From Mobula hypostoma (lineage: Eukaryota), in the NCBI RefSeq assembly GCF_963921235.1, contig NC_086108.1:55182001-55246000 (forward strand): a stretch of DNA of 64,000 nt, written 5' to 3'. The notes beneath the pieces were generated by a model. The model saw only the letters and a program-made list of their open reading frames with translations, ran no database searches and had not been told where the DNA came from. This document shows, piece by piece, positions 2,806 through 60,430 of this stretch; position 1 is the first letter of the stretch; the number at the start of each line of letters is the position of its first letter. A program made the position numbers and the translations under genes.

Positions 2806-5519
2806 GGCAGGAGGATGGGAACAAGTATGAGTATGAGCTGAGGATGCGCTAGCAGCTTTACATTTAAATGATGGGTGTAACACGAATGTAAGGAATAACA
2901 AGCCAATGATTAGGTACGCATGGAGACAGAGCAAAGAGTTAAATTGTACCACAGAGGCAAAATTCAAAAGGGCAAAGATGCAGGAGTGAAGGTGCTGTAT
3001 TTTAGTGCGTATAGCATTCAGAATAAGGTGGACAGCCTGGTGGTGCAATTTGAGATTGGTTAGTATGATGTTATGGGCATCATTGAGTCTCAGCTGAAAG
3101 AAAGCCATAGTTGGGGGCTGAACATCAAAGGATATTCTTTGTATCGAAAGAACAGACAGGAAGGACTAGGCGGTGGTGTGGCTCTGTTGGTAAAAGATGG
3201 GATTACATCTTTAGAAAGAGGTGACATAGGGTCAGAGAATGTTGAATCTCTGTGAGTGGAATTAAGAAACAGCAAGAGTGGCCAAGATGTGGGGTTGAGA
3301 TTGCAAAGGGAGCTGGAAAAGGCATGTAATAAGGATAATGTCATAATTGTATTGGGGGACTTCAATATGCAAGGGGATTGGGAAAATCAGGTTGGTGTTG
3401 GATCACAAGACAGGGAATTTGTTGAATACCTATGGCTTTTTAGAGCAGCTTGTACTTGAGCCTACTTATGGAAAGCCTTAGATTTGGTGTTGTGTAGTAA
3501 CCCAGATCTTATTAGGGAGCTTAACGTAAAGTAATCCTTAGGAGGCAGTGATCATAATATGATTGAATTCATACTGAAATTTGAGAGGGAGAAGTATAAG
3601 TCACATGTATCAGTATTGCAATGGGATAAAGGGAATTACAGAGGCATGAGAGAGGAGCTTGCCCAGGTGGATTGGAGGAGGATATTAGTGGAGATGATGG
3701 CAATGCAGAGATGGCTGAGGTTTCTGGGACTAGCTTACAAGGTGCAGGATAGATAGGTCCCACAGAAGAAGTTGTTCTCTAGTGGCAGGTCTAGGCAACC
3801 GTGGCTGACAAGGGATGTTAAGGACTGCATAAAAGCCAAGGTCCCAGAGGACTGAAAGATTGCAAATGTCACTCCACTCCTTAAGGAGTGAGGAAGGCAA
3901 AGGAAAGGAAATTACAGGTCGGTTAGCCTAACCTCAGTGATTGGAAGTGTTGGAATCTATCATGAAGGATGAGATTTCGGGGTACTTGGAGACTAATGAT
4001 AAAACAAGTCAAAGTCAGCATGGTTTCTGTAAAAGGAAATCTTGCCTGACAAATCTGTTAGAGTTCGTCAAGGAAGTAACAAGCAGATGGACAAAGGAGA
4101 GGCAGTGGATGTCATTTACTTGGATTTTCAGAAGGCATTTGATAAGGTGCCACACATTAGGCTGCTTAACAAGATGAAATCCTATGGCGTTACAGAAAAG
4201 ATACTGTCATTGATAGAGGAAAGGCTGACAGGAAGGAGGCAGCGAGTGGGAATAATGGGGGCCTTTTCTGGTCGGCTGCCAGTGACAAGTGGGGCTCCTC
4301 AGGGGTCAGTATTGGGATTGCTACTTTTCACATTGTTTATCAGTGATTTGAATAATGGAATTGATGGCTTTGTGGCAAAGTTTGTGGATGATATGAAGAA
4401 AGGTGGAGGGGTAGGTAGTGCCGAGAAAGCAATGTGATTACAGCTGGACTTAGACAAATTGGAAGAATGGGCAAAAAAGTGGCAGATGGAATACAATGTT
4501 GGGAAATGTACGATAACGCATTTTGCTAAAAGGAACAATAGTGAGGACTATTACCTAAATGGGGAGAAGGTTCAAACATCAGAGGTGCAGAGGGACTTAG
4601 GAGTCATCATTGAAGACTCCTAGAAGGTTAATTTACAGGTTGAATCCGTGGTATAGAAGACAAATGCAATGTTGGCATTTATTTCAAGGGTAATAGAATA
4701 TAAAAGCAAGGAAATAATGCTGAGCAACACACACAAAATGCTGGAGGAACTCTGCAGACCAGCGAGCATCTATGGAAAAAAGTGCAGTCAATGTTTAGGG
4801 TTGAAACCCTTCGGTAGCCTGAAACATTGACTGTACTTTTTTTCCATAGATACTGCCTGACCTGCTGAGTTCCTCCAGCATTTTGTGTGCGTTGTTCAGA
4901 TTTCCAGCATCTGCCATTTTTCTCTTGTTTGAGAGAACCTAAGGCTTTATGAGACACTTGTCTGTCCACACTGGGAGTATTGTCAACAGTTTTGGGTCCC
5001 ATATCTCATAAAGGAGATGTTGTCATTGGAGAGAATCCAGAGGAGGTTCATGAGGATGATTTCAGGAATGAGCAGTTAACATATGAGGAGCGTTTGGCAA
5101 CTTTGGGCCTGCAGTCACTGGAATTTAGAAGAATGAAGGGGGATCTCATTAAAATCTACTGAATGTTGAAAGGACTAGATAGGGTGGATGTGGAGAGGAT
5201 GTTTCCTCTGGGGAGATGTCCAGAACAGAGGGCCCAGCCTCAGAATTGAGGGTAACCCTCAATTTGCAGGGGTAAGGAGGAAATTTTTAGACAGAGGGTA
5301 GTGAATCTGTGGATTGCTCTGCCACAGACTGGACTGGAAGCCAAGTCTATATTTAAGGCGGAATTTGTTGACAGCTTCCTGATTGGTCAGGGCATCAAAG
5401 GATATGGCGAGAAGGCAGGTGTATGGGGTTGAGTGGGATCTGGGATCAGCTATGATGTAATGGCAGAGCAGATTCAATGAGCTGAATGGCCTAATTCCGC
5501 TCCTATGTCTTATGGTCTA
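2806..5519 (+). mobile_element. CR1 LINE with internal deletions (APE, RT, 3' tail)
   Basis: GIIESQLKE...GGGVALLVK, VLGDFN, DFQKAFDKVPH, GAPQGSVLG; tail TCCTATGTCTTATGGTCT. Confidence 0.95.
4724..4930. mobile_element. Short palindromic Penelope-derived insert
   Basis: CACACAAAATGCTGGAGGAACTC...GAGTTCCTCCAGCATTTTGTGTG inverted arms, homologous to the termini of the 26440-31564 element. Confidence 0.85.
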
Positions 5520-9570: not shown

Positions 9571-9883
9571 GGAAGAATAAACATGAGAACGTCTGTAGTT
9601 GCTGGAAATCCAAAGCAACACACACAAAATGCTGGAGGAACTCAGCAGGCCAGGCAGCATCCATGGAAAAGAGTAAACAGTCAACGTTTCAGGATGAGAC
9701 CCTTCATCAGGACCCCACTCCAGTGCAAAGTCTCTTCCAGGGATGCCTACCCTGAAGAAGTTTAAATCTTCCCTTCGACGGGAGTTCAGTGAAACTCTCT
9801 CTCACTTTTTTATTGTTTACACTTTTCCATGAATGCTGCTTGACCTGCTGAGGTCTTCCAGCATCTGCAGATTTTCTCATGTT
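9571..9883. mobile_element. Penelope-derived short element with inverted ends
   Basis: AAACATGAGAA...TTCTCATGTTT inverted termini; PLE terminal sequence. Confidence 0.8.
9680..9713 (-). ncRNA. Minimal type I hammerhead ribozyme motif
   Basis: Reverse complement GTC-CTGATGA-AGG-GTCTCAT-CCT-GAAA-CGTT-GAC: both core boxes plus stems I and II intact. Confidence 0.75.
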
Positions 9884-12293
9884 TAGAAAATAGGTTATGC
9901 CTTTATTCTTTCTACCAATGTGCATGACCGTACACTTCACTACATTATATTCCACTGCACTTCTTTGCCCATTCTCCCAAGTCATTCTCCTATGTTATTC
10001 TGCAGACTCCCTGCTTCCTTAGCACTACGTGCCTCTCCACTTATCTTTGTATCATCTGTAAATCTGGACACAAAGCCATCAATTCCATCAGCCAAATCAT
10101 TGACATATAACGTGAAAAGAAGACATCCTAAAACAGACCCCTGTGGAACACCACTAGTCACCAGCAGTCAACCCGAAAAGACCCTCTTTATTCACACTTT
10201 TACCTCCTGCCAGTCAGCCACTCTTATGTCCATGCTAGAATCTGTCCAGTAATGCCATGGGCTCTTATCTTGTTAAGCAGCCTCACGTGCAGCACCTTGT
10301 CAAAGGCCTTCTGTAAATCCAAGTAAACAGCATGTACTGCCTCTCTTTTTGTTTATCCTGCTTGTTATTTACTCAAAAAATTCCAACAGATTTGTCAGGC
10401 AAGATTTTCCCTTAAAGAAACCATGATGACTTTGGCCTATTTTATCATGTACCTCCAAATTACCTGAAACCTCAACCTTAATTATCGACTCCAACATCTT
10501 CCCAACCACTGAAGTCATGTTAACTGGCCTGTCATATCCTTTCTTCTGCTTCCCTTTCTGAAAGAGTACAGTGACATTTGCAATTTTCCAGTCCTGCGTG
10601 AACATTCCAGAATTCAGTGTTTCCTGAAAGATCATTACTAATGCCTCTACAATCTCTTCAGCTACCTCTTTCAGAACCCTGGGTGTAGTCCATCTGGTCC
10701 ACGTAACTTATCTACCTTTAAGCCTTGCAGCTCCTCAAGCACCTTCTCCTCAGTAAAGGCAACTACATTCACTTCTGCCACCTGACACTCTTCTGGAACA
10801 CTGCCCATGCCTTCCACAGTGAAGAATAATGCAAAATACCTAATCCTATTATTGGATAGCTTACCTTCATATTTCATCTTTACTCTCCTAATGTTTTTAG
10901 TTGCCTTCTATTGGGTTTTAAAAGCTTCTCAATGCTCTAACTTCCAACTAATTTTTACTATACATGTCTTCTATTTTCCTCTTATGCTGTCATTAACCTC
11001 CCTCGTCACTCACAGTTGCCTCATCCTCTCTTTAGAATACACCTTCAGCCCGTGGTGTATTTATCCTGTGCCAGGCATGTTGCCTCCAGAAACACCAGCC
11101 ACTGATGTTCTGCCGTCATCCGTGCTAGTGTCCCCTTTCAATCAACTTGGGCCATTACCTCTCTCGTGCCTCTGAAGTTCCCTTTTCTGCACTTCAATCT
11201 TCTCCCTCTCAAACTGCAGAGTGAATTCTATCATACTATGATCATTGACTCCTAAGGGTTCCTTCCCTTTAAGCTCCCTAATGAAAACTGGTTCATTACA
11301 AAACACCCAATCCAGAATTGTGTTTTGCTGAGTGGGCTCAAGCACAAGCTGCTCTAAAAAAGCCATCTTGTTGGCATTCTACAAATTCTCCAGGTCATAC
11401 CTGCCCCAGCAGAGATCCCAATGATCCAGAAATCTGAAACCCTGTCCCCTGCACCAGTTCCTCAGTCACCCATTCATCTGTACTATCATCCTATTCCTAC
11501 CCTCACTAGCACATGACACTGAGAGTGATCCAGAGATTACTACCTTGGAGGGCCTACTCTTCAACCTCTTCCCCAATTCACTATACTCACTGCACAGGAC
11601 ACCCTCCCCTTTTCTCCCTATGATGTTGGTGCAATGGTGGAACACAACTGTTGGCTGCTCACACTCTGTCTTGGCAACCGCTCTGAGGCATCGGTGACCC
11701 TAGCACCTGGGGGGGGGGCAACATACCAACTCTTTTGTGGCCACAGAATCTCCTCTCTGTACCCTTGACTATCGAGTTTCCTATCACTGTCACTTTATGT
11801 GACTTTATTCTTCTCTGCTGAGCCAGAGCCAATCACCGTGCCACTGACTTGGCTGCTGTTTCTGTGCCCTGATAGGTCATCCCCTCCCCACCCCCAGAGG
11901 TATACTTTTTGCTGAGGGGAATGGCCACAGGGGAACTGTAAACTATCTGCTTACTCCCCTTACTTCTCCTGGTGCTCACCCATTTACAATCTGAAGCCTG
12001 TGCTCTAGTGATCAATGTCTTTTCAATTTTAAAAAGATAATTTCTAGATTTACATCTTTTAGTTTTCCCAATGTCCAATTTCCTTATTTCTGACCAACTG
12101 GGAAGTGTGGAGTCTCACATGCAGGTAAGTCTCCTTCTCCCTGTGGCTATGTTGTGAAGTTTTCTCTGTTTTAGTTGCCTCCGTCACTGTCACCTCCACC
12201 ACCTCTGCCATTTTCCCTTCAAAACTGGTTTAGAAAAGAGTTATCCATTCATCCATATTTTGTCAAGAGTAAACCTTGTTGTGGCAAGCGACA

Positions 12294-12417
12294 ACAGGAA
12301 TTCTGCAGATGCTGGAAATTCAAGCAACACACATAAAAGTTGCTGGTGAACGCAGCAGGCCAGGCAGCATCTCTAGGAAGAGGTGCAGTCGATGGTTCAG
12401 GCCGAGACCCTTCGTCA
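12294..12417 (-). mobile_element. 5'-truncated Penelope terminal fragment
   Basis: Near-identical to ~26444-26567; 13-bp TSD GTGGCAAG(C/T)GACA (12281-12293, 12418-12430). Confidence 0.92.
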
Positions 12418-12619
12418 GTGGCAAGTGACATTAACTTCATATTTGTGGTGGTGTATCACCATATCAGTGACATACCATTTAGATTTATATTGTAAAGACT
12501 GGAAGAAAATATAAACATCTGAATTCAAATCCTATTCTTGTAGCTCTGGAAATTGGTTTGTCACAAATATCCATTTGTATCATTAGTGCCATTCAAGAAA
12601 ATAGCCTGCTCTTACCTGC

Positions 12620-26111: not shown

Positions 26112-26536
26112 ATTGTAAATCTCCTCTGCACCCTTTCTATGGTTTCCATGTCCTTCCTGTAGTGAGGCGATCAGAATTGAGCACAGTACTTCAAGTGGGG
26201 TCTGACCAGGGTCCTATATAGCTGCAACATTACCTCTTGGCTCTTAAACTCAATCCCATGATTGATGAAGGCCAATTCACCGTATGCCTTCTTAACCACA
26301 GAGTCAATCCACACTGCCAGGAGTCTTTCAATTAACACTATATTCTGCCAACATATTTGACCTACCAAAACGAACCACCTCACACTTATCTGGGTTGAAC
26401 TCCATCTGCCACTTCTCAGCCCAGTTTTGCATCCTATCAGAAAACAGGAATTCTGCAGATGCTGGAAATTCAAGCAACACACATAAAAGTTGCTGGTGAA
26501 CGCAGCAGGCCAGGCAGCATCTCTAGGAAGAGGTGC

Positions 26537-26572
26537 AGTCGACGTTTCAGGCCGAGACCCTTCGTCAGGACT
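26537..26572 (-). ncRNA. Minimal type I hammerhead ribozyme motif (left arm)
   Basis: Reverse complement AGTC-CTGACGA-AGG-GTCTCGG-CCT-GAAA-CGTC-GACT. Confidence 0.85.
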
Positions 26573-26866
26573 AACTGAAGGAAGAGTGAGTAAGGGATTT
26601 GAAAGTTGGAGGGGAAGGGGGAGATCCAAAATGATAGGAGAAGACAGGAGGGGGGGGGGATGGAGCCAAGAGCTGGACAGGTGATAGGCAAAAGGGATAC
26701 GAGAGGATCATGGGACAGGACGTCCGGGAAGAAAGACAAGGAGGGGGGGACCCAGAGGATGGGCAAGGGGTATATTCAGAGGGACAGAGGGAGAAAAAGG
26801 AGAGTGAGAGAAAGAATGTGTGTATAAAAATAAGTAACGGATGGGGTACGAGGGGGAGGTGGGGCA

Positions 26867-27320
26867 TTAGCGGAAGTTAGAGAAGTCGATGTTCATGCCA
26901 TCAGGTTGGAGGCTACCCAGACAGAATATAAGGTGTTTTTCCTCCAACCTGAGTGTGGCTTCATCTTTACAGTAGAGGAGGCCATGGATAGACATGTCAG
27001 AATGGGAATGGGATGTGGAATTAAAATGTGTGGCCACTGGGAGATCCTGCTTTCTCTGGCGGACAGAGTGTAGGTGTTCAGCAAAGCGGTCTCCCAGTCT
27101 GCGTCGGGTCTCGCCAATATATAAAAGGCGACATCGGGAGCACGGGATGCAGTATATCACCCCAGCTGGCTCACAGGTGAAGTGTTGCCTCACCTGGAAG
27201 GACTGTTTGGGGCCCTGAATGGTGGTAAGGGAGGAAGTGTAAGGGCATGTGTAGCATTTGTTCTGCTTACACGGATAAGTGCCAGGAGGGAGATCAGTGG
27301 GGAGGAATGGGGGGGACAAA
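26867..27320 (-). CDS. Uninterrupted GIY-YIG endonuclease domain in the inverted arm; probably not expressed
   Basis: CKQNKCYTC...GVIYCIPCSRCRLLYIGETRRRLGDRFAEH...LEEKHLIFCLGSLQPDGMN. Confidence 0.6.
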
Positions 27321-30300
27321 CCATCTCTCACTGCTCCCCATCTGTAATTTCTTCGGCTCTTCAACTTTTCGACCACACTTTGACTCAGACTCCCTATCAC
27401 AGCCATATATCCTTTCTTGGAACGTGCCTCCGTCGCCAACTTACTCCAGTTGGCTTTAGGATTCGTTTCCGAGCCTCTCAATTTGGACCTTCTGAGGATC
27501 CCAGGTATTCACATTTTATTGACTCTGCCTCTCGCCACTTCTCCCGTCAAGCTCTGAAGGCGACTCTCTCCACCATGAGGAGGTACTTGGTGTCCCTATC
27601 CCAGACCCTTCCACACCTTCGGGACACTTTCTTCGCCGTCTGTAATGGTCCTACCCGTTATTTCATCCTCCGTCGGATTCACGCCTGCAATCGCCATTTT
27701 TTTGACTTTGTCATGTTAGGCAAAGATCGCAATATCCTACAGTTACGGACTCCAGAGCCTGCTGGCCATGAAACTAGCAGGCATGAACTTCAGATTGCGG
27801 CCTCTGCCATTGATCTCGGCGGCTCCAACACCTCAGGACATATTCAAAACCCGGACTCCAGCACCGACCATGGACACCTTCAAAGCAATTGCGCAACCAC
27901 CAACTGCGACTCCAGCCTTGAACTCCAGGCCGGGTCTTTATGTGCTGCTGTTGTGACTCCCGTCTCCCCTTCCCCCACCAATACTCTGCAATCCCATCTC
28001 CTTCAGATCCCACCGTCAGCTCCTGGGCCCTCAGAGGCTCCATCTTCCTCTCACCCCAACCCTCCCCTCTCCACTGACACCCCCAGCCTCCCCCGTCCCC
28101 CCTCTGATCCCAGCTCTCATCCGTGCCGGGTCCTTACCATCCCTTCCGACCTTCAACTGTCGGAGGCAGAACGCTCTGTCCTCAGTAAGGTCCTCACCTT
28201 TGTCCCCCTTCGCCCACACCTCAGCGAGTTCCGTGTTCGCCATGATGCGGAACTTTTCTTCCGCCGTCTCCGTCTCCGAGCCTACTTCTTCGGCAAGGAC
28301 TCTTCCACCCCCACCGATGACCCCTTCTCCCGTCTTCAACCCTCCTCTTCTTCATGGACACCCCGCTCTGGTCTTCTGCCTGCTCTGGATCTCTTTATCG
28401 CTAACTGCCGACGGGACATCAACCGTCTCGACTTCACCGCACCTTGTCCCCATTCCAACCTCACTCCTTCGGAACGCTCTGCTCTCCACTCCCTCCGCAC
28501 TAATCCTAACATTATTAAACCCGCCAAAAAGGGGGGTGCTGTTGTAATCTGGCGTACTGACCTCTACCTAGCCGAGGCACAGCGACAACTCGCGGATACC
28601 TCTTCTTATTTACCCCTCGATCGTGACCCCACTAAGGAGCACCAGGCCATTGTCTCCCACACCATCACCGACTTTATCCGCTCAGGGGATCTCCCATCCA
28701 CTGCTACCAACCTTATAGCTCCCACACCTCGCACTTCCTGTTTCTACCTCCTACCCAAGATCCACAAACCTGCCTGTCCTGGCCGATCTATTGTCTCAGC
28801 TTGCTCCTGCCCCACCGAACTCGTTTCTGCATACCCCGACACGGTTTTATCCCCCCTTGTTCAATCCCTTCCTACCTATGTTCATGACACTTCTCATGCT
28901 CTTAAACTTTTCGATGATTTTAAGTTCCTTGGCCCCCACCGCTTCATTTTCACCATGGATGTCCAGTCCCTATATACCTCCATCCCCCATCAGGAAGGTC
29001 TCAAAGCTCTACGCTTCTTTTTGGATTCCAGACCTAATCAGTTCCTCTCTACCACCACTCTGCTCCATCTAGAGGAATTAGTCCTTACTCTTAATAATTT
29101 CTCCTTTGGCTCCTCCCACTTCCTCCAAACTAAAGGTGTAGCTATGGGCACCGGTATGGGTCCTAGCTATGCCTGCCTTTTTGTTGGCTTTGTGGAACAA
29201 TCTATGTTCCGTGCCTATTCTGGTATCTGTCCCCCACTTTTCCTTCGCTACATCGACGACTGCATTGGCGCTGCTTCCTGCATGCATGCAGAGCTCGTTG
29301 ACTTTATTAACTTTGCCTCCAACTTTCACCCTGCCCTCAAGTTTACCTGGTCCATTTCCGACACCTCCCTCCCCTTTCTAGATCTTTCTGTCTCTCTCTC
29401 TGGAGACAGCTTATCCACTGATGTCTACTATAAACCTACTGACTCTCACAGCTATCTGGACTATTCCTCTTCTCACTCTGTATCCTGCAAAAACGCCATC
29501 CCCTTCTCGCAATTCCTCCGTCTCCGCCGCATCTGCTCTCAGGATGAGGCTTTTCATTCTAGGTCGAGGGAGATGTCTTCCTTTTTTAAAGAAAGGGGCT
29601 TCCCTTCCTCCACCATCAACTCTGCTCTTAAACGCATCTCCCCCATTTCACGTACATCTTGTTACGAGAATACACATAAAATTAAGATGTTTGCTGGCCT
29701 GGGCTAGCATCAGTGGCATCAGCAGTTGGTCTGCCACCTGCCCTCAGGGGAAGGAGAGATAAGGAACAATGGAGCAGCGTCTGGAGATGTGTAATGAAGG
29801 GATGTGGGAGAGAGAGCTGTCTGGAGCGGCTCCCCCCCTTTGAACCCTGAACTGTTTGAAGTGATGGACAGGCGATACCCCAGCAGGGGGATAAAAAGGG
29901 ACAGGTTCGCTAAAACAGACACACACGCCACCCGAGGTAACGAGACCCTGGAAGCGGTGCGCCTCTCACGAGTGGGTGAGAAGTGCCAGACAACGACAAG
30001 GGTGGAAAGGTACGATCAGCGGGAACCCGGTGTGTGTCCGCCCTTGCCTGGGTGCCGGGTTCACTGCAGAGGATCGACCGCATCTGGAGGAGGGGTCACA
30101 GTCGGTGACCTCAGGTGACATCACCAAGGACCCGCCCAAATGCTGTTTGTGAGCCATCTCGCTGGTCTGTGAGTGAAGCCGTTCTGAATGATCAGTTGTT
30201 CCTATTCTATGTCTCTCTTCCCCCACCTTGTCCATCGCCATGGCAACGATTACTGCGAACTGAACTACTAACTGGACTGAACTTTGAGTCATTTTGAAAT

Positions 30301-31180
30301 TGGTCATTTACCCCTAGACAACGATAGAGCTTGATTGATGCTGTTATCTTAATGCTGTGCACATGTGTGTTTATCATCACTGAACTGTTGCATTTATTAT
30401 CCTTTCGATTACTGTGTTGCTTGTTTCTTTAATAAAACTTTCTTAGTTCTAGTACTCCAGACTCCAACTGAGTGATCCATTTCTGCTGGTTTGGCAACCC
30501 AGTTACGGGGTACGTAACAATCTGCTCTCACTCCATCCTCCCGCCACCCCACTAGGAATAGGGTTCCCCTGGTCCTCACCTATCACCCCACCAGCCTCCG
30601 GGTCCAACATATTATTCTCCGTAACTTCCGCCACCTCCAACGGGATCAACCACTAAGCACATCTTTCCCTCCCCCCCTCTCTCTGCATTCCGCAGGGATC
30701 GCTCCCTACGCAACTCCCTTGTCCATTCGTCCCCCCTATCCCTTCCCACTGATCTCCCTCCTGGCACTTATCCGTGTAAGCAGAACAAGTGCTACACATG
30801 CCCTTACACTTCCTCCCTTACCACCACTCAGGGCCCCAAACAGTCCTTCCAGGTGAGGCAGCACTTCACCTGTGAGTCGGCTGGGGTGATATACTGCGTC
30901 CGGTGCTCCCGATGTGGCCTTTTATATATTGGCGAGACCTGACACAGACTGGGAGACCGCTTTGCTGAACACCTACGCTCTGTCCGCCAGAGAAAGCAGG
31001 ATCTCCCAGTGGCCACACATTTTAATTCCACATCCCATTCCCATTCTGACATGTCTATCCATGGCCTCCTCTACTGTAAAGATGAAGCCACACTCAGGTT
31101 GGAAGGAACAATACCTTATATTCCGTCTGGGTAGCCTCCAACCTGATGGCATGAACATCGACTTCTCTAACTTCCGTTAA
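27320..31180 (+). pseudogene. Penelope RT-GIY-YIG ORF, interrupted
   Basis: IIKPAKKGGAVV, FYLLPKIHK, TMDVQSLYTSIP, GVAMGT, FLRYIDD, PFLD open to 29659; then the solo LTR, a frameshift near 30648, TGA at 30940-30942 and a frameshift near 31105. Confidence 0.93.
29660..30519 (+). mobile_element. Solo LTR (860 bp, Gypsy-type)
   Basis: TGTTACG...CGTAACA termini; perfect 4-bp TSD ATCT (29656-29659, 30520-30523); AATAAA at 30431. Confidence 0.95.
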
Positions 31181-31468
31181 TGCCCCACCTCCCCCTCGTA
31201 CCCCATCCGTTACTTATTTTTATACACACATTCTTTCTCTCACTCTCCTTTTTCTCCCTCTGTCCCTCTGAATATACCCCTTGCCCATCCTCTGGGTCCC
31301 CACCCCCCTTGTCTTTCTTCCGGGACGTCCTGTCCCATGATTCTCTCGTATCCCTTTTGCCTATCACCTGTCCAGCTCTTGGCTCCATCCCTCCCCCTCC
31401 TGTCTTCTCCTATCATTTTGGATCTCCCCCTCCCCCTCTCAAATCCCTTACTCACTCTTCCTTCAGTT

Positions 31469-31504
31469 AGTCCTGACGAAGGGTCTCGGCCTGAAACGTC
31501 GACT
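31469..31504 (+). ncRNA. Minimal type I hammerhead ribozyme motif (right arm)
   Basis: AGTC-CTGACGA-AGG-GTCTCGG-CCT-GAAA-CGTC-GACT; GUC cleavage triplet. Confidence 0.85.
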
Positions 31505-33494
31505 GCACCTCTTCCTCGGGATGCTGCCTGGCCTGCTGCGTTCACCAGCAACTTTTATATATTATTTGCATCCTATCAATGTACCATTGTAACCTCTGAC
31601 AGCCCTCCACTCTATCCACAACACCCCCAACCTTTGTGTCATCAGCAAATTTACTAACCCATCCCTTCACTTCCTCATCCAGGTTATTTATAAAAAAATC
31701 ACAAAGCGTAGGGGTCCCAGACAGATCCCTGAGGCACACCACTGGTCACCTGCCTCCATGCAGAATATGACCTGTCTACAACCACTCTTTGCCTTCTCTG
31801 GGCAAGCCAGTTCTGGATCCATAAAGCAAGGTCCCCTTGGATCCCATGCCTCCTTACTTTCTCAATAAGTCTTGCATGGGGTACCTTATCAAATGCCTTG
31901 CTAAAATCCATATACACTACATCTACAGCTTTACCTTCATGAATATGTTTAGTCACATCCTCAAAAAAATTCAATCAGGCTCGTAAGGCACAACCTGCCT
32001 TTGACAAAGCCATGCTGACTATTCCTAATCATATTATTCCTCTCTAAATGTTCATAAATCCTGCTTCTCAGGATCTCCTCCATTAACTTACCAACCACTG
32101 AAGTTAGACTCACTGGCCTATAATTTCCTGGGCTATCCCTACTGTCTTTCTTGAAAAAGGGAACAACATGTGCAACACTCCAATCCTCCAGAACTCTTCC
32201 CATCCTCATTGATGATGCAAAGATCATTGCCAGAGGCTCAGCAATTTCCTCCCTCACTTCCCACCGTAGCCTGGGGTACATCCCGTCCAGTCCTGGTGAC
32301 TTATCCAACTTGATGCTTTCCAAAAGCTCCAGCACATCCTCTTCCTTAATATCTACATGCTCAAGCTTTTCAATCCACTGCAAGTCATCCTTACAATCAC
32401 CAAGATCTCTTTCCATAGTGAATACTGAAGCATCTCCCATTTGGCCCTTCCGAAGATACCTATGTCTGCCTGACCTCAACTATCTTAGCATTATCCTAAT
32501 TATTCATCTGGGTGATTTTTCACTGCTGATTCTCTATCTGAAAGCCCCGCAATCATTGCTCCACATTGATTCTTGTCAATTCTTTAATCTCTGGACATCT
32601 TGCTACTGATTTTACTGCACAAAACATTCCCCCTTGATCCATCCCACTTTCCAAAATATCCCCCCTTCCACAGTCATCTCACCTTGTAACTTTACCACTG
32701 ATGCATTTAACTTTCACAGTGGTGCAATTAAATATGCAAATAGTTGTAGCCTAGAAATAATTAGCTACAAAACATTTAGCACAGAGCGAAACAGGGAAAT
32801 CTGTTTGAATTTTTTTGGCTATCTTTGTTTCATGCCTCAATTACCATCTCCTTTCCCCTTGCATCATTGTCCCTTTTGAAATACTCAATCCTACCCTCTA
32901 CCTTATCAACAATCTCCCTGATTGCTTTCTGCTTCCCTCCCGTATATCCTGTCTCTGTACTTGTTTCAAATCTATTGATTCAGAAATGTTATCAGCTAGT
33001 GCAACATTTTTGTCTGTTATATGATAAAATCTTATAAAAACTGATCACGAAATGCAGTTGTGCTCATTGGTGATTAAATTAAATATGCAAAGACACGTAT
33101 TTAATTTCTGTTTTTGTTCTCAAAATGTGAACACTGCTGCCAACAACGGCATGTACGGTCCAGATCTAATCACTCCAAAATGAGGCAAGTCAGTGTCAAT
33201 CACATATAGACTAGACCGGTAAATGATGGTAGATGACAAAATTGGGAAGGGAGTTTTGCCAACATGTAACTGTTAAACCTTTTAACAGTTCTTAAATGTC
33301 TCTAACATGCAAAAGCACTAAAAAAAAATCAAATTCAATTTAAAAGTTTATTAAACATATTTTAAAAGAGTAGAATATTAGGTAAAAATAAAATCAGAAA
33401 TAAACTTAAGCAAATATTTTTAAAGAAAAACTTAACTTTCTCTTTGCTTCCTAAGTTATTGCCCTTCAGACAGCATCAGAACCAATGAGGACCC

Positions 33495-33735
33495 TAGAGA
33501 CACCACAGACTGCAGATGCTGGAATCTGAAGCAACAACCAATTTGCTGTAGAAACTCAGTGGGCTGTGAGGAATCTGTGGGAGGAAAGTTGTGGACATTT
33601 TGTGTTGGAACCCTGCATCAGGACCCCACAGAGGAAAGTTCAGATGCAAGGTTTCAACCTGAAACATCAAAACTCCTTCCCCTCAGGTGCTGCTCAACCT
33701 ACTGAGTTGCTCCTGTAGATTTTTTTTTTGTTGCT
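33495..33735. mobile_element. Old palindromic Penelope-derived insert
   Basis: CTGCAGATGCTGGAATCT start; degenerate CTGATG...GAAA motifs in both orientations. Confidence 0.7.
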
Positions 33736-33969
33736 GAAACTTAATGAGTTTTGGATTCTGTATAGTCAGACTTAGCACTTGATCTGAATGTGATGCCCTA
33801 ATATAAGTATGGAAACAAGTCTTCTGGGTCATCGAGTCTGCGCTGATTATCAACCACCATTTTCACTAATCCTACATCGATCTCACTTTCTATTCTTCCC
33901 ACATACTCCCAACTCTCTCCAGATTCTACCACTCACCTACACACGAGGATCATTTGACACTGGAATGCC

Positions 33970-35147
33970 TTTTCAGAAAGCCTTTGATAAGGTCCCACAT
34001 AGGAGATTAGTGGGCAAAATTAGGACACATGGTATTGGGGGCAGAGTACTGACAAGGATTGAAAATTGGCTGGCTGACAGAAAACAAAGAGTAGCGATTA
34101 ACGGGTCCCTTTCCAAGTGGCGGGCAGTGACCAGTGGGGTACCGCAGGGTTCAGTGCTGGGACCGCAGCTGTTTACAATATATATTAATGATTTAGATGA
34201 GGGAATTAAAAGTAACATTAGCAAATTTGCCGATGACACAAAGCTGGGTGGCAGTGTGAAATGTAAGGAGGATGTTATAAGAATGCAGGGTGACTCGGAC
34301 AGGCTGGGTGAGTGGGCAGATGCATGGCAGATGCGGTTTCATGTGGCTAAATGTGAGGTTATCCACTTTGGTGGTAAGAACGGGAAGGCAGATTATTATC
34401 TAAATGGAGTCGTTAGGAAAAGGGGAAGCATGACGAGATCTAGGTGTTCTTGTACATCAGTCACTGAACGCAAGCATGCAAGTACAGCAGGCAGTGAAGA
34501 AAGCTAATGGCATGCTGGCCTTCATAACAATTGAGTATAAGAGCAAAGAGGTCCTTCTGCAGCTGTACAGGGCCCTGGTGAGACCACACCTGGAGTACTG
34601 TGTGCAGTTTTGGTCTCCAAATTTGAGGAAGGACATTCTTGCTGTTGAGGGAGTGCAGCATAGGTTCACAAGGTTAATTCCCGGGATGGCGGGACTGTCA
34701 TATGTCGAAAGATTGGAGCGACTGGGCTTGTATACTCTGGAATTTAGAAGGCTGAGAGGGGATCTTATTGAAACATATAAGATTATTAAGGGATTGGACA
34801 TGCTGGAAGCAGGAAGCATGTTCCCGCTGATGGATGAGTCCAGAACCAGAGGCCACAGTTTAAGAATTAGGGGTAGGCCATTTAGAACAGAGTTGAGTAA
34901 AAACTTTTTCACCCAGAGAGTGGTGGATGTATGGAATGCTCTGCCCCAGAAGGCTGTGGAGGCCAAGTCTCTGGATGCTTTCAAGAAAGAGATGGATAGA
35001 GCTCTTAAAGATAGCGGAATTGAAGGTTATGGGGATAAGGCAGGAACTGGATACTGATTGTGGATGATCAGCCATGATCACAGTGAATGGCAGTGCTGGC
35101 TCAAAGGGCCGAATGGCCTACTCCTGCACCTATTGTCTATTGTCTAT
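33970..35147 (+). mobile_element. Young 5'-truncated CR1
   Basis: Long RT ORFs 33809..34507 and 34476..35057; (TATTGTC)n tail. Confidence 0.97.
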
Positions 35148-35162
35148 AATACATTGATCTGA

Positions 35163-35465
35163 AAGTATGGAAACAAGTCTTTTGGGTCATCGAGTCTGTG
35201 CTGATTATCAACCACCATTTTCACTAATCCCACATTGATCCCACTTTTTATTCTTCCCACATACTCCCAACTCTCTTCAGATTCTACCACTCACCTACAC
35301 ACAAGGAACATTTGACAGTGGAATGCCTTTGGAGTGAAACCGACACTTGGAGGAAACCGAAGCACCTGGGGGAAATCCATTTGGTACAGGGAGAATGTGA
35401 AAGCTGCATATAGGAAGCACATTGATCCAGAGTGAATCTGCGAGGTCTGCCACTATTCCACCAAC
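35163..35465 (-). mobile_element. V-SINE/HE1-like SINE
   Basis: GGAGGAAACCGAAGCACCTGGGGGAAATCCA...CAGGGAGAATGTG matches the reverse complement of the V-SINE core. Confidence 0.7.
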
Positions 35466-44259: not shown

Positions 44260-45030
44260 ACCAAATGTCTTTTAAACATTGTAATACTGTCTGCCTCTAT
44301 CCCCTCCTTTGAAAGCTCTTCCAGATGACCACTACTCTGTGTGAAAAACTAACCCCTTGGACCACCTTTAAATTTTTCCCCTCTCACCTTAAACCCTATT
44401 GCTTTAGACTGCACTGCCTAGGGGAGAAGATTCTGGGTATATGTCCTATCTATGTCCCTCATAATTTCATAAACCTCTACATGGTAGCCCTTCAGTTTCC
44501 AGCATTCAAATGAGAACAAATCCAGACATGAGAAAATCTATAGATGCTGGAAATCCAAGCAACACACACAAAATGCTGGAGGAACTCAGCAGGCCAGGCA
44601 GCACCTCAGCCTGAAATGTCGACTATACTCTTTTCCATAGATGCTGCCTGGCCTGCTGAGTTTCTCCAGCATTTTGAGAATAAACCCAGCCTATCCAATC
44701 CAGGGGGCATAGTACCTATTTCCAAGCACCTTAAAACTGCGTGAGATGTCAGAGGTAAGATTTTCACACAGAAGGTGGTGGGTGCATGGAATGCACTGCT
44801 GGCAGGAAGCGGATACAATAGGGTCTTTTAAGAGCCTCTTAGATAGGTACATGGAGCTTAGAAAAATAGAGGGCTATGTGTTAGGGAAATTCTAGGCAGT
44901 CTTTAGAATAGGTTACATGGTCAGCACAACATTGTGGGCCAAAGGGCCTGTAATGTGCTGTAAATTTCTATGTTCTGTGTTCTCTCCTTATAACTACAGT
45001 GCTCCATCACAGGCAAAATTCTGGTGAACC
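44260..45030. mobile_element. Mosaic of CR1 3' fragments (both strands) with a Penelope-derived insert at ~44527-44675
   Basis: CR1 3' motifs plus AAATGCTGGAGGAACTCAGCAGGCCAGGCAGC inverted arms. Confidence 0.8.
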
Positions 45031-47799: not shown

Positions 47800-50520
47800 A
47801 TTTAAAAATCAATAAAGAATTATCAAAAATGCAAAAGAAGATAATGGTAGAGCTTTTACAAGTCTGCGAAAAGAAATGGATTGGTGAAAGTAAAATTTCA
47901 CTCCTTAGAGGTGAAAACTGGTACAATTATAATAAATAATATGTGAATGACAGACACATTAAATGAATAGATTGTGTCTTCACAGTTGAAGACATTAAAG
48001 ATGAATGAATTTAGTAGTTGAGAGGGGTGGCAACAAATGTCTACTCTGCCACAGTTGAGCCAGAGGTGCCTGATGGGACAGAAGTGTGGATAATTTGTGA
48101 GGTGCTGTCTTCCTTTGGACAGTTATTCAAGGAAATTATGTTTAAGTATTTAAGTATGTATATAAGGCCGAACTACTTGCTTTGGATTTTCACAGAACAT
48201 CTCATGATTTGCTACATAAGATGCTATTATATAAGAACAGGTCCCTTGAATAAGATGGGATAATATGGATTGGAGACTGGTTAAAGGACAGGAAACAGAG
48301 ATTTAGAAGTGATAAATGACTTATTACAGTGTAAGTGCTGAAAAATCAGAGGCCTTGATGCTTTACTATCTATACTTCTTCACCTATGACTTAGACGAAG
48401 GGACCAAAAGTCCCAGATTTACTATGAATGCATGACAAAATTGTTATGGAGTTTCTGTGGATGCTTCAAAAAGGTTGCAAATAGATATAGACCAATTATT
48501 TGATTGTACAACAAGTTGGCAGATTAACCATGTTGGCAAGAGTGTGAAGTTATTAATTTAGCTGAAAGAAAGGAAAAGCGGAGCTTTAAAAAATCATGAG
48601 TGATCAATTAATGTTGGCTATTCTGGACCTTAGGATGTAACTATGAAAATGGACAAGGGAGAGCCAGTGGATATAGTACACCTGGACTTTCGGAAACCCT
48701 TTGATGAAGTCCCACATAGGAGATTAGTGGGCAGAATTAGGGCACATGGTATTGGGGGCAGAGTACTGACATGGATGGAAAATTGGCTGGCTGACAGACA
48801 ACAAAGAGTAGCGATTAACGGGTCCCTTTCGGAATGGCAGGCGGTGACCAATGGGGTACCGCAGGGTTCAGTGCTGGGACCGCAGCTGTTTACAACATAT
48901 ATTAATGATTTAGATGATGGAATTAAAAGTAACATTAGCAAATTTGCCAATGACACAAAGCTGGGTGGCAGTGTGAAATGTGAGGAGGATGTTATGAGAA
49001 TGCAGGTTGACTTGGACAGCCTGGGTGAGTGGGCAGATGCAGTTTAATGTGGATAAATGTGAGATTATCCACTTTGGTGGTAAGAACAGGAAGGCAGATT
49101 ATTATCTAAATGGAATCAAGTTAGGAAAAGGGGAAGTACAACGAGATCTAGGTGTTCTTGTACATCAGTCAAAGAAAGCAAGCATGCAAGTACAGCAGGC
49201 AGTGAAGAAAGCTAATGGCATGCTGGCCTTTATAACAAGGGGAATTGAGTATAAGAGCAAAGATGTCCTTCTGCAGCTGTACAAGGCCCTGGTGAGACCA
49301 CACCTGGAGTACTGTGTGCAGTTTTGGTCTCCAAATTTGAGGAAGAACATTCTTGCTATTGAGGGAGTGCAGCATAGGTTCACAAGGTTAATTCCCGGGA
49401 TGGCGGGACTGTCATATGTCGAAAGATTGGAGTGACTAGGCTTGTATACTCTGGAATTTAGAAGGCTGAGAGGGGATCTTATTGAAACATATAAGATTAT
49501 TAAGGGATTGGACACGCTGGAGGCAGGAAGCATGTTCCCGCTGATGGATGAGTCCAGAACCAGAGGCCACAGTTTAAGAATAAGGGGTAGGCCATTTAGA
49601 ACGGAGTTGAGGAAAAACTTTTTCACCCAGAGAGTGGTGGATATATGGAATGCTCTGCCCCAGAAGGCTGTGGAGGCCAAGTCTTTGGATGCTTTCAAGA
49701 AAGAGATGGATAGAGCACTTAAAGATAGCGGAATCAAAGGTTATGGGGAGAAGGCAAGAAATGGATACTGATCGTGGATGATCAGCCATGATCACAGTGA
49801 ATGGTGGTGCTGGCTCGAAGGGCCAAATGGCCTACTCCTGCACCTATTGTCTATTGTCTATTATTGACATTTTTAATTGCCCCTCAACTAACTGGCTTGC
49901 TGGGCCAGGTCAGAGTGAACCAATTTGAATTTAGGGTGACAAATCAGCCAAATTGGGAAAGGCCAGTAATTTTCTTTTATAACAATAGCTTTATGGTCAG
50001 CATTGTTGCTAACAGCTTTTCATTCCAATTTAATACTTTCAATTTATATTCTCTAGGGATTTAAACTCTTGTCTTCCAGCCAATGTTTCTGGATACTATT
50101 CCCATGATTAGACCACATTTACCACCTTACACACATGTTAGCTTAGAAAAGCAAATCTTTTTAGAATGTCTGAGGTAACACATCTGGACTGCCTTGCCCA
50201 GTAAACTTACGGTGAAGAAGGTTGTTCTTGCATTAGGATGCGTGTGACAAAGAGATTGATTTCTGGTATATAAGAAATATGTGGCTTAGAAAGACTTAAA
50301 AAGTAACCTTTGCGAACTTCATAAAGTTGGCAAAGTTGATTTTAAAAGACTATTATCCCGATCGGAGAGTTAAGAATCTGCTCTCAGGATAAGGAGTTGA
50401 TAGTCTAGGACTGAAACAAAAAGAAATGCTTCCACTCAAAACTTTGTGTGGCTTTGCAATTTTCTGCCTGGAGTCTGCAGGGATGCTGGTCAAGGAGTGC
50501 ATTTAAGACTGAAGGATATC
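47800..50520 (+). mobile_element. Very old CR1-like LINE relic surrounding a young CR1
   Basis: Degenerate TTCACAGTTGAAGACA, GACTTAGACGAAGGGACC and CAGGATAAGGAG motifs in CR1 order. Confidence 0.55.
48631..49862 (+). mobile_element. Young 5'-truncated CR1, same subfamily as 33970-35147
   Basis: ORFs 48643..49771; (TATTGTC)n tail; closely similar to the 34-kb copy. Confidence 0.97.
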
Positions 50521-51484: not shown

Positions 51485-54015
51485 GAAACATAGAAACATA
51501 GAAAACCTACAGCACAACATAGGCCTTTTGGCCCAAAATGCTGTGCCGAACATGTACTTACTTTAGAAATCTCTGACAGCCCCCCACACTATCCACAACA
51601 CCTCCAACCTTTATGTCATCAGGAAATTTACTAATCCATCCCTCCATTTCCTCATCCAGGTCATTTATAAAAATCACGAAGAGGAGGGACCCCAGAACAG
51701 ATCCCTGAGGCACACCACTGGTCACCGACTTCCATGCAGAATATGACCCATCTACAACCACTCTTTGCCTTCTGTGGGCAAGCCCGTTCTGGATCCACAA
51801 AGCAAGGTCCCCTTCGATCCCATGCCTCTTTACTTTCTCAATAAGCCTTGCATGGGGTATCTTATCAAATGCCTTGCTGAAATCCATATACACTACATCT
51901 ACTGCTTTACCTTCATCAACGTGTTTAGTCACATCCTCAAAAAATTCAATCAGGCTTGTAAGGCATGACCTGCCTTTGACAAAGCTATGCTGACTATTCC
52001 AAATCATATTATGCCTCTCCAAATGTTCATAAATCCTGCCTCTCAGGATCCTTTCCATCAACTTACCTACAACTGAAGTAAGACTCACTGGTCTATAATT
52101 TCCTGGGCTATCTCTAATCCCGTTCTTGAATAAGGGAACAGCATCTGCATCCCTCCAATCCTCTGGAACATCTCCCGTCCCCATTGATGATGCAAAGATC
52201 TCCTCCCTTGCCTCCCACAGTAGCTTGGGGTACATCTCTTCTGGTCCCGGAGACTTATTCAACTTGATGCTTTCCAAAGCTCCAGCACATCTACTTTCTT
52301 AATGTCTATATACTCAAGCTTTTCAATCCACTGTAAGTCATCCCTACACCCACCAAAATCCTGTTCCATAGTGAATACTGAAGCAAAGTATTAATTAAAT
52401 ATTAATTAAATAGGTTCACTAGGTTAATTCCTGGGATGTCCGGACTGTCTTACGCAGAGAGGTTAGAGAGACTCGGCTTGTACATGCTGGAATTAAGGAG
52501 ATTGAGGGGGGATCTGATTGAGACATATAAGATTATTAAGGGATTGGACAAGATAGAGGCAGGAAATATGTTCCAGATGCTGGGAGAGTCCAGTACCAGA
52601 GGGCATGGTTTAAGAATAAGGGGCAGGTCATTTAGGACAGAGTTGAGGAGGAACTTCTTCTCCCAGAGAGTTGTGGAGGTGTGGAACGCGCTGCCTCAGA
52701 AGGCAGTGGAGGCCAATTCTCTGGATGCTTTCAAGAAGGAGCTAGATAGGTATCTTATGGATAGGGGAATCAAGGGTTATGGGGACAAGGCAGGAACCGG
52801 GTATTGATAGTAGATGATCAGCCATGATCTCAGAATGGCGGTGCAGGCTCGAAGGGCCGAATGGTCTACTTCTGCACCTCTTGTCTATTGTAAATATCTT
52901 TGCCATCTCCTCTGGTTCCGTATACACTTTTCCACTGTCACACTCGATTGGTTCTATTCTCTCACATCTTATCTTCTTGCTCTTCATATATTTGTAGAAT
53001 GCCTTGGGGTTTTCTTTAATCCTGCTCACCTAGGCCTTCTCATGGCCCCTTCTGGCTCTCCTAATTTCATTCTTAAGCTCCTTCCTGCTAGCCTTATAAT
53101 CTTCTAGATTCTTATCATTACCTAGTTTTTTGAACCTTTCGTAAGCTTTTCTTTTCTTCTTGACTAGATTTTCAACAGCCTTTGTATACCACAGTTCCTG
53201 TACCCTACGACCTTTCTCTGTCTCATTGAAATGTACCTTTGCAGAAGGCCATGCAAATATCTCTTGAACATTTGCCACATTTCTGCCATATATTTCCCTG
53301 AGAATATATGTTCCCAATTTATGCTTCCAAGTTCCTGCTGATAGCTTCATATTTCCCTTTACGTCAATTAACAGACCTAACTTGTCTGTTCCTATCCCTC
53401 TCCAATACTATGGTAAAGGAGATAAAATTGTGTTCACGATCTCCAATATGCTCTCCCATTGAGAGACCTGACACCTGACCAGGTTCATTTCTCAATACCA
53501 GATCAAGTACAGCCTCTCCTTTTGTAGGCTTATCTACATATTGTGTCAGGAACCTTCCTGAACACACCTAACACACTCCACCCCATCTAAACCCCTTGCT
53601 CTAGGGGAGATACCAATCAATATTGGGGAAATTAAAATCTCCCACCACGTCAACCCTGTTACTATTACACCTTTCCAGAATCTGTCTCCTTATCTGCTCC
53701 TCGATGTCCCTGTTACTATTGGGTGGTCTATAAAAAACACCCAGTAAAGTTATTGACCCCTTCCTGTTTCTAACTTCCACCCACAGAGACTCACAGACAA
53801 TCCCTTCATGACTTCCTCCTTTTCAGCAGCTGTGGCACTATCTATGATCAGCAGTGCCATGCCCCCACCTCTTTTGCCTCCCTCCCTGTCCTTCCTGAAG
53901 CATCTAAAGTTTGACACTCTAAGTAACCATTCCTGCCCCTGAGCCATCCAAGTCTCTGTAATGGCCACAACATCATAGCTCCATGTACTGATCCATGGTC
54001 TAAGCTCATCTGCTT
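51485..54015 (-). mobile_element. CR1 LINE (APE and RT, internal deletion)
   Basis: YDVVAITETW, RT ORF 51558..52277, CATAGAAA tail. Confidence 0.95.
52410..52888 (+). mobile_element. Young CR1 3' fragment nested in the opposite-strand CR1
   Basis: ORF 52436..52807 (LRRLRGDLIETYKII...); tail TTGTCTATTG. Confidence 0.93.
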
Positions 54016-54899
54016 GACAACAGCTATATGCCCTTAAAATATTATAAGAATGTGAATTTATGTTGTTAAAGGCAATAGAGTTATGTCTGATTCTAGTTAC
54101 ACCTGATGCCTGCATGCATGTTTTACAAACAGCAAGAGCCATATGTTGAGAATGTTCTTGATGTTCTTATGAACTGTATCCATCAGTATTGAATCCAATT
54201 GTAGTGCACTATAATTTGCTTTGTTTACACAGTTCTTAAAAATCAGATGAAACCAAGCATTTTCTAATGGGTTGTCGTGCTCTGTTTACACAATGCCATA
54301 TTTTTTTGTAATGTCTCAGCAGATTGAGCATGAACTGTAATTCAACATCATTTGCAATTGTACATAAATGGTTTAAATTATCAATGACAATCTAATGATT
54401 GGAGAATGATTTATCCCAGATGATTTTATGTGTATGATGGGTTCCTTAAGGTTGTTTTAGCTAGGGGAGGGGGTAGTGGGGATAAGTTCACACTACTCAT
54501 TAACTGTTTCCAATGGTGTGCACCTCAAATGGCCTCAAACGACCAAGTTCAGCTCCTGGCCATGTGTGGCTTAGCTACCAAGCCTGGCAGACCTGCTCTA
54601 TTGACAGGAAAAGGGGTGAAAGTGAGTTACTGGTGTCTTAAAACCAGTTGCTTCAGGCAGATGTGGTCGGCAACTCATCTAAGGGAAGGAAAACTTTCAT
54701 CTCAAACTTTTTGGAGCATGCACCATCCAATGGTACGCAATAATTCCAGCTGACAACACAATGTTACGCAATAACTCCAGCTCCATCGCTATCGAGCAAC
54801 TCACTGATGGGATAGTCCTGCAGGACTTGATGTTCTTGGTACCCAGCAGTGACTTGCAATCGTAGTAAAAAAAAGACTACAAGATGAACAAACTCTAGG

Positions 54900-59900: not shown

Positions 59901-60430
59901 CCCAAAAGAGGTCTCAATGATCCAGAAATCTGAATCCCTGCCCCCTGCTCCAATCCCTGAGCCACGCATTTATCCTCCACCTCATTCTATTGCTATACTC
60001 ACTGTCACGTGGCACAGGCAGTAATCCCGAGATTACTACCTTTGAGTTCCTGCTTCTCAACTTCCTTCCTAACTCTCTGTAGTCTGTTTTCACGACCTCC
60101 TCCCTTTTCCTACCTATGTCGTCGGTACCAATATGTACCACGACCTCTGGCTGTTCACCTTCCCACTTCAGGAAATTGTGGATGCGATCAGAAACATCCT
60201 GGATCCTGGCACCTGGGAGGCAAACTACTATCCGTGTTTCTTTCCTACGTCCACAGGTTTGCTTGTCTGACCCCCTAACTATAGAGTCCCCTATTACTGC
60301 AGCCTTCTTCCTTTCCCTACCCTTCTGAGCCACAGGGCCAGACCCTGTGCCAGAGGTGCGGCCACTGTTGGTTCCGCCGGGTAGGTCGTTCCCCCCCAAC
60401 AGTACTCAAACAGGAGTACTTATTGTTAAA
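56964..60430 (-). mobile_element. Near-full-length decayed CR1 including ORF1 SGNH esterase-like domain
   Basis: ORF 59914..60399: VIGDSIVRG...CLPGARI...VVVHIGTDDIG; APE 59203..59562; RT 57833..58690; 3' tail. Confidence 0.96.

Follow-up and report, generated by a model that had tools for sequence, protein, structure and literature searches.

Hammerhead motifs at both outer ends of a dead Neptune-like Penelope element in Mobula hypostoma, probably ordinary copies of the element's 3′ end

The DNA analysed here, referred to as the window, is a stretch of 64,000 nucleotides from Mobula hypostoma (contig NC_086108.1 of RefSeq assembly GCF_963921235.1, positions 55,182,001 to 55,246,000 of the forward strand), numbered from its first letter. 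It contains a Penelope-like element (PLE) with a 36-nucleotide hammerhead ribozyme motif near each of its outer ends. We consider it very probable that a single insertion of a Neptune-like PLE, now dead and belonging to a high-copy family, makes up the locus, and that the two motifs are ordinary 3′-end hammerheads, present at both outer ends because each end copies the 3′ end of the element. The motif is most likely without activity at this locus. An earlier inspection of the letters alone (the sequence-only reading) had noted the two motifs, and had proposed that they would need to dimerise in trans in order to cleave.

The whole 5.1-kb structure is enclosed by a 14-bp target-site duplication (26426..26439 and 31565..31578, plus strand). 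A paralogous long interspersed nuclear element (LINE) at 57338-58117 matches both flanks, and it is uninterrupted, with the duplicated word present once, at 57703-57716. The duplication and the empty paralogous site together show a single insertion into an older LINE. Two independent insertions are rejected, both by the single target duplication and by a rare variant shared between the two arms, discussed below. The structure itself consists of an 881-nt inverted, 5′-truncated copy with a tail, lying head-to-head with a 3.4-kb forward unit that has none. The tail, of about 43 nt, is found at the left end only (26440..26482, minus strand); the right arm ends at the equivalent of 26483, and the same tail is present on a short copy of the element elsewhere in the window (12290-12418). 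Next to the tail is the inverted copy of the element's 3′ end (26483..27320, minus strand), made up of the endonuclease part and the 3′ untranslated region with its pseudo-long terminal repeat (pseudo-LTR), at 96% identity to 30726-31558. It includes an open but N-terminally cut fragment of the GIY-YIG endonuclease, with a CX4CxxC linker (26867..27319, minus strand; Pfam GIY-YIG E=3.7e-4, just under the curated cut-off). The arms had been described as terminal repeats, which is correct for the pseudo-LTR part, but each arm additionally holds about 450 nt of endonuclease coding sequence.

The forward unit (27321..31558, plus strand) is almost full-length. It has no 5′ pseudo-LTR, and roughly the first 15-20 codons are missing: alignments to homologs start at about residue 17-24, at 27320-27338. 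Its open reading frame (ORF) starts with an N-terminal domain and reverse transcriptase (RT) at 27323..29659 (plus strand; RVT_1 E=7e-5, under the curated cut-off), in which YIDD is intact and DKG reads KKG. The ORF is then split by a secondary, solo-LTR-like insertion of 860 bp (29660..30519, plus strand), bounded by TGT...ACA and flanked by a target duplication of 4 bp. The remainder (thumb, linker and endonuclease; 30524..31180, plus strand) has a frame change at about 30660-30675, a stop at 30940-30942 and a further frame change at about 31100. With its ORF broken by the insertion, one stop and two frame changes, this copy of the element is dead. The pseudo-LTR end (31505..31558, plus strand) follows, its tail-less end lying in the loop of a predicted hairpin, and 6 nt of filler (31559..31564, plus strand) separate it from the right duplication. 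The 860-bp insertion has 7-bp inverted ends, a TATA-like word at 29890 and AATAAA at 30431, is in forward orientation, and occurs once in the window.

The identification as a Penelope element, already made from the letters, is supported by the RVT_1 and GIY-YIG matches, which are collinear with homologs of 890-950 residues. The closest named protein relatives are from bamboo shark (Chiloscyllium, 71%) and stingray (64%), as would fit a cartilaginous fish host. The linker CKQNKCYTC has the form CX4CxxC, within the CX2-5CxxC pattern of Neptune, which is shared with Nematis. The endonuclease translation reads VIYCVRCSRCGLLYIG, then EHL and ATH, in agreement with the published definition of endonuclease-containing PLEs, and the insertion has the features by which PLE insertions are recognised, namely pseudo-LTRs that may be direct or inverted, a tail at one end and a target duplication. 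For comparison we used 98 loci with related RTs, most of which would be animal DNA in metagenome bins. In a quick tree of 36 rows, made from partial sequences without named reference RTs and including 33 of the 34 loci chosen from the 98 (L095 was too short), the RT falls in a 17-row clade (SH-aLRT 98) together with loci whose motif has been listed, in PMC4209133, for an element of Acropora digitifera under the label Neptune. On this evidence the element appears to be a Neptune-like PLE, with a linker that fits either Neptune or Nematis. A non-LTR retrozyme was considered and rejected: such an element is a tandem array of non-coding units with a type I hammerhead in every unit, and the copies here are inverted and flank a coding unit.

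The motif lies in the pseudo-LTR, in the same sense as the ORF, about 290 nt past the stop codon of the latter and 54 nt short of the element end. The right copy is at 31469..31504 (plus strand) and the left at 26537..26572 (minus strand), with predicted cuts after C 31500 (C17) and C 26541 respectively. The two 36-mers are identical, as the sequence-only reading had it, and both fall inside a single 78-nt block that has no differences between the arms. The right copy has the hammerhead core CUGANGA...GAAA...UH in the form CUGACGA (31473-31479), GAAA (31493-31496) and UC (31499-31500). Stem I (31469-31472/31501-31504) is open, with four Watson-Crick pairs plus one G-U, and stem II (31481-31484/31489-31492) has 4 bp, where at least 3 are required. 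An extra base, the bulged A at 31480, follows A9; G10.1 is present, with U as its partner (a G-U pair) rather than C. Stem III is the loopless palindrome ACGU (31496-31499), with C17 next to it. Core, stems and palindrome thus all fit the minimal PLE-type hammerhead with a vestigial palindromic stem III that had been proposed. Stem II had been drawn as AGG/CCT; a short stem II is indeed present, but its register is probably one base off. With stem I included in both cases, the arrangement of the bulged A followed by GGGU/GCCU and a CUCG loop is calculated at -6.0 kcal/mol, against -4.6 kcal/mol for AGG/CCT. The bulged-A register, which also matches the relatives, is therefore slightly favoured by the model and is probably the correct one.

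A search of the window with the motif pattern gave four matches at up to three mismatches and none in 100 shuffles, so that its occurrence is far above chance. A scan of the window with Rfam covariance models, the check suggested by the sequence-only reading, returned six matches at E up to 5, with no hammerhead among them.

It had been noted that the motifs are identical although the arms differ elsewhere. This turns out to be expected from the divergence of the arms. The alignment of 26483-27320 with 30726-31558 has 831 columns, with 26 substitutions and 4 gaps (differences at 3.6% of positions), 269 of the 805 36-nt windows are identical, and the longest identical runs, of 125 and 124 nt, are both outside the motif. 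The probability of finding no difference in 36 nt is 0.27 at a flat rate and 0.06 with CpG columns weighted, and we consequently reject the idea that the two copies are more alike than expected and so betray selection here.

The history of the arms can be followed using contigs from genomic sequencing runs. In two DNA runs, 278,855 contigs (run X1) and 240,667 contigs aligned to the left arm, and the summed contig depth over the motif region is about 100 times that at the start of the ORF. Such figures would fit a very large family made up mostly of 5′-truncated copies, although the contig counts are not a copy number. Forty of 164 family variants were listed, 38 of them inside the arm. At 25 of these 38 the two arms share the same letter, and at one shared variant (26721/31327) 99% of the run X1 depth carries another letter. 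The shared variants, and this rare one in particular, indicate that both arms come from one template lineage, and that the motifs are not independent survivors. None of the 38 is within the 36-mer (1.6 expected, P 0.19). An alternative is that gene conversion between the inverted repeats after insertion homogenised the arms and kept their outer parts, including the motif, alike. Differences are indeed denser in the inner arm, with 15 in 255 columns (30726-30980) against 7 in 377 in the outer part (31181-31558). However, CpG columns account for 8 of these 15, and a single source template is enough to account for the shared variants. We regard gene conversion as unlikely; it would in any case leave the functional reading unchanged.

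The window also holds a third, short copy of the same subfamily (12290..12418, minus strand), 129 bp long and with an 8-bp target duplication. It is identical to the left arm at 126 of 129 positions, and two of the three differences are in the hammerhead palindrome. Its 5′ end coincides with C3 of the ribozyme core rather than with the cut site. Among the ten other aligned copies of the motif in the window only one is free of core mismatches, and three lack part of the core; the motif decays after insertion.

Conservation is better judged across the family. A descriptor of the motif found 42 motifs in 35 of the 98 related loci, as against 0-1 per shuffle. When the search did not require the palindrome (its control gave 5 matches in total over 20 shuffles), 27 of 30 distinct motifs were nevertheless palindromic, with seven different palindrome sequences and varied stems I and II. 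These 27 have an A after the core in 22 cases, and G-C or G-U at 10.1-11.1 in 25 (21 G-C and 4 G-U). In the relatives, 37 palindromic motifs were located, of which 21 are in sense orientation downstream of the RT and 11 in sense orientation upstream. In L024 and L084 the RT lies between two direct copies of the motif, about 3.4-3.5 kb apart, an arrangement that would allow a dimer in cis. L009 has an inverted pair like that in Mobula, and L094 has one inverted and one direct upstream repeat. By these comparative observations, selection on the motif at the family level is well supported. The viral contigs searched contained no related RT.

Some further features of the comparison loci may be recorded here. 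Within L081-L095, PLE RTs, in some cases accompanied by hammerheads, occur in several assemblies that carry bacterial labels; most likely the bins include DNA of an animal host. A minisatellite with a 14-bp period and internal inverted symmetry (L084:4218-5080) lies some 700 nt downstream of the 3′ hammerhead of that locus. A hammerhead-like match recurs at L003:4056 (minus), L039:1904 (plus), L061:3769 (minus) and L081:382 (minus), three times antisense inside RT coding sequence; it is probably a coincidence of the coding sequence, shared by descent.

On the basis of these results we propose the following history. Both arms would have been reverse transcribed from the RNA of one source element, with reverse transcription starting on either side of the tail, at two internal initiation sites that each served one target strand. 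The tail at one end, and the tail-less end in a hairpin loop, are as described in published work on the tail and internal initiation. A common source RNA would have made the motifs identical at the start, and they would so far have escaped mutation. The ribozyme would be under selection in the source element, where, to judge from the literature and from the relatives, a direct upstream pseudo-LTR would provide two sense copies on each RNA. These two copies may exchange strands through the ACGU palindrome, sharing a 4-bp helix III, and cut slowly, probably with the help of the element's protein. The 860-bp LTR-like insertion, the stop and the two frame changes are later events.

Several points weigh against this explanation. 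The energy models used, described below, do not include the tertiary core, and so understate the active fold. An intact, direct-repeat source element of this family was not seen, and exact scans for the motif in metagenome contigs and in viral contigs gave no match in either. The CpG-weighted probability of identity is just 0.06, and all four CpGs are intact in both motif copies; together these leave room for slight constraint at the locus, or for gene conversion. Finally, cleavage after C 31500 is a prediction from the sequence.

Folding calculations bear on whether the motifs could cut. The best fold of the monomer pairs the core with the palindrome and is inactive (-10 kcal/mol). The active trans dimer is calculated at -9.5 kcal/mol, as against -28.3 kcal/mol for the best inactive dimer and -20 kcal/mol for two inactive monomers, and the pair probabilities of the ribozyme helices are at most 0.001, both in isolation and in sequence context. 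In an RNA that crosses both arms, the motif would meet a fully complementary antisense copy and pair with it; this pairing is calculated at -76 kcal/mol for the 36-mer, and within the identical block 78 of 78 positions are paired. The preference of the models for inactive folds agrees with the low or protein-assisted activity reported for such hammerheads. Minimal PLE hammerheads are reported to be inactive as monomers and of low activity as dimers, one of nine frog dimers was reported active, and the hammerhead of the anole element PAc is reported to cut only with protein (PMC11167929).

The sequence-only reading had argued that, since the arms are inverted, each strand's transcript would have only one sense ribozyme, and cleavage would need a trans dimer. 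There is indeed one sense ribozyme per strand. The need for a trans dimer at this locus is probably moot, because the ORF is broken, the antisense arm would mask the motif in a read-through RNA, and the relatives have the usual direct pair, which could dimerise in cis. It is nevertheless worth considering whether single-ribozyme transcripts of the locus are cut through a trans dimer, formed among themselves or with transcripts of other copies. A double hammerhead can be drawn in trans with all pairs standard, each strand carries one sense motif, and the family is very abundant, as the run X1 count indicates. In a variant of this proposal the solo-LTR-like insertion, whose forward strand contains a TATA-like word and AATAAA, serves as a candidate promoter, and RNA reading through into the right arm would be free of the antisense arm. 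The energies just given speak against cutting through a trans dimer. Moreover, even cis dimers are reported to cut weakly in vitro, eight of the nine frog dimers are reported without cutting, and for the anole element no RNA ends are reported to have been found where its ribozyme would cut (PMC11167929). In addition, a read-through RNA of the locus would fold back on itself, and transcription of the locus is an assumption. Cutting by a trans dimer here is thus very unlikely.

A different role for the palindrome can also be imagined, in which its main service is to hold a pair of element RNAs together on an RT-endonuclease dimer. Priming would then take place on both target strands at once, and head-to-head insertions like this one would result. 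Palindromy is kept despite sequence change, the outer ends of the insertion coincide with the two boundaries of the tail, and the anole protein, a predicted dimer, cuts and extends both strands (PMC11167929). However, Naiad PLEs form the same inverted structures without canonical hammerheads (PMC8557442), a 4-bp palindrome is a weak link, the double-hammerhead fold already accounts for the palindromy, and reuse of one RNA would yield an identical product. We consider this explanation very unlikely. Its more specific form, that the palindrome acts in trans as a dimer-linkage signal with one target strand primed per tail boundary, is very improbable too; it would yield just the product seen here, with two outward 3′ ends, one tailed and one tail-less, within one target duplication. 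In cartilaginous fishes the many dispersed copies would then also be possible trans partners within ordinary transcripts. If true, a palindrome linking two RNAs during insertion would explain head-to-head PLE structures. No proposal of a dimer-linkage role for the PLE palindrome was found in the literature searched, which left out a paper by Lunse, Weinberg and Breaker that, by its title, reportedly concerns small PLE hammerheads cleaving as dimers, the same motif class.

Returning to the explanation favoured here, a single insertion with ordinary 3′-end hammerheads, the published record provides precedents for most of its features. Cervera and De la Pena (2014) defined the minimal hammerhead class and the dimer model (PMC4209133). 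The motif described here resembles that class in being type I, with a short stem I, an extra base between 9 and 10.1, a loopless palindrome at 15.2-16.2 and a location in the pseudo-LTR. It differs in its cartilaginous fish host and in having G-U at 10.1-11.1, where G-C is usual. Its stem II of 4 bp is as in the Acropora Neptune motif; that of Schistosoma has 7-8 bp (PMC4209133). The same paper reports pairs of hammerheads on opposite strands in Schistosoma, and its Supplementary Fig. S4A shows a 5′-truncated PLE with a single motif in the 3′ repeat and a second, opposite-strand motif at the 5′ end. The words 'shark', 'Callorhinchus' and 'Leucoraja' are absent from supplement file 2 of PMC4209133, supplement file 1 being outside the search.

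An inverted, 5′-truncated copy and a one-sided tail are typical of PLEs (Craig et al., 2021; PMC8557442), and inverted pseudo-LTRs within target duplications were described by Arkhipova et al. (2013; PMC3846280). The inverted arm is a usual by-product of PLE insertion (PMC8557442), and an opposite-strand hammerhead pair had already been published (PMC4209133). In common with Neptune PLEs (PMC8557442, PMC3846280), the element has a single ORF with RT followed by GIY-YIG, a CX2-5CxxC linker and a CCHH motif, and its insertion has an inverted 5′-truncated copy at the 5′ side, a tail at one end and a target duplication. Unlike a typical PLE insertion, it has no direct 5′ pseudo-LTR separating the inverted copy from the ORF, and its inversion joint has no palindrome, unlike several rotifer copies (PMC8557442, PMC3846280). 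PAc, a Poseidon element of Anolis carolinensis (Frangieh et al., 2024; PMC11167929), also has a hammerhead in its pseudo-LTR, two ends that define the tail, and ends at a predicted stem-loop. It differs in belonging to the Penelope/Poseidon clade and in having its start codon within the ribozyme; its hammerhead is not needed for insertion in vitro (PMC11167929). The motif class, the idea of a dimer and the opposite-strand layout have therefore all been published previously. The value of the present locus is modest, as a clean example from a very-high-copy family that is suited to statistical tests of the in vivo role of PLE hammerheads.

Sister families are also present. Alignment ends at 26536 and 26572, the edges of the motif, are among the six listed for each of runs X1 and X5, which suggests that sister families diverge just outside the motif. 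A sister-family copy at 9585-9724 (minus strand) has an intact hammerhead core with U at position 17, and lies beside an inverted short end at about 9810-9865. An older sister family is represented by tiny head-to-head insertions of two short pseudo-LTR ends, at 4720-4930, 33505-33740 and 44520-44680. The last of these, at 44579-44666, yields a spurious Rfam hairpin match.

Elsewhere in the window there are young LINE copies, 82-97% alike and related to the LINEs around the insertion, at 33794-35330, 48630-49860, 51558-54166 and 57676-59621. A piece of ORF at 59914-60405 (minus strand) has an SGNH/GDSL esterase-like domain (Pfam E=1e-10), and is probably ORF1 of a CR1/L2-type LINE.

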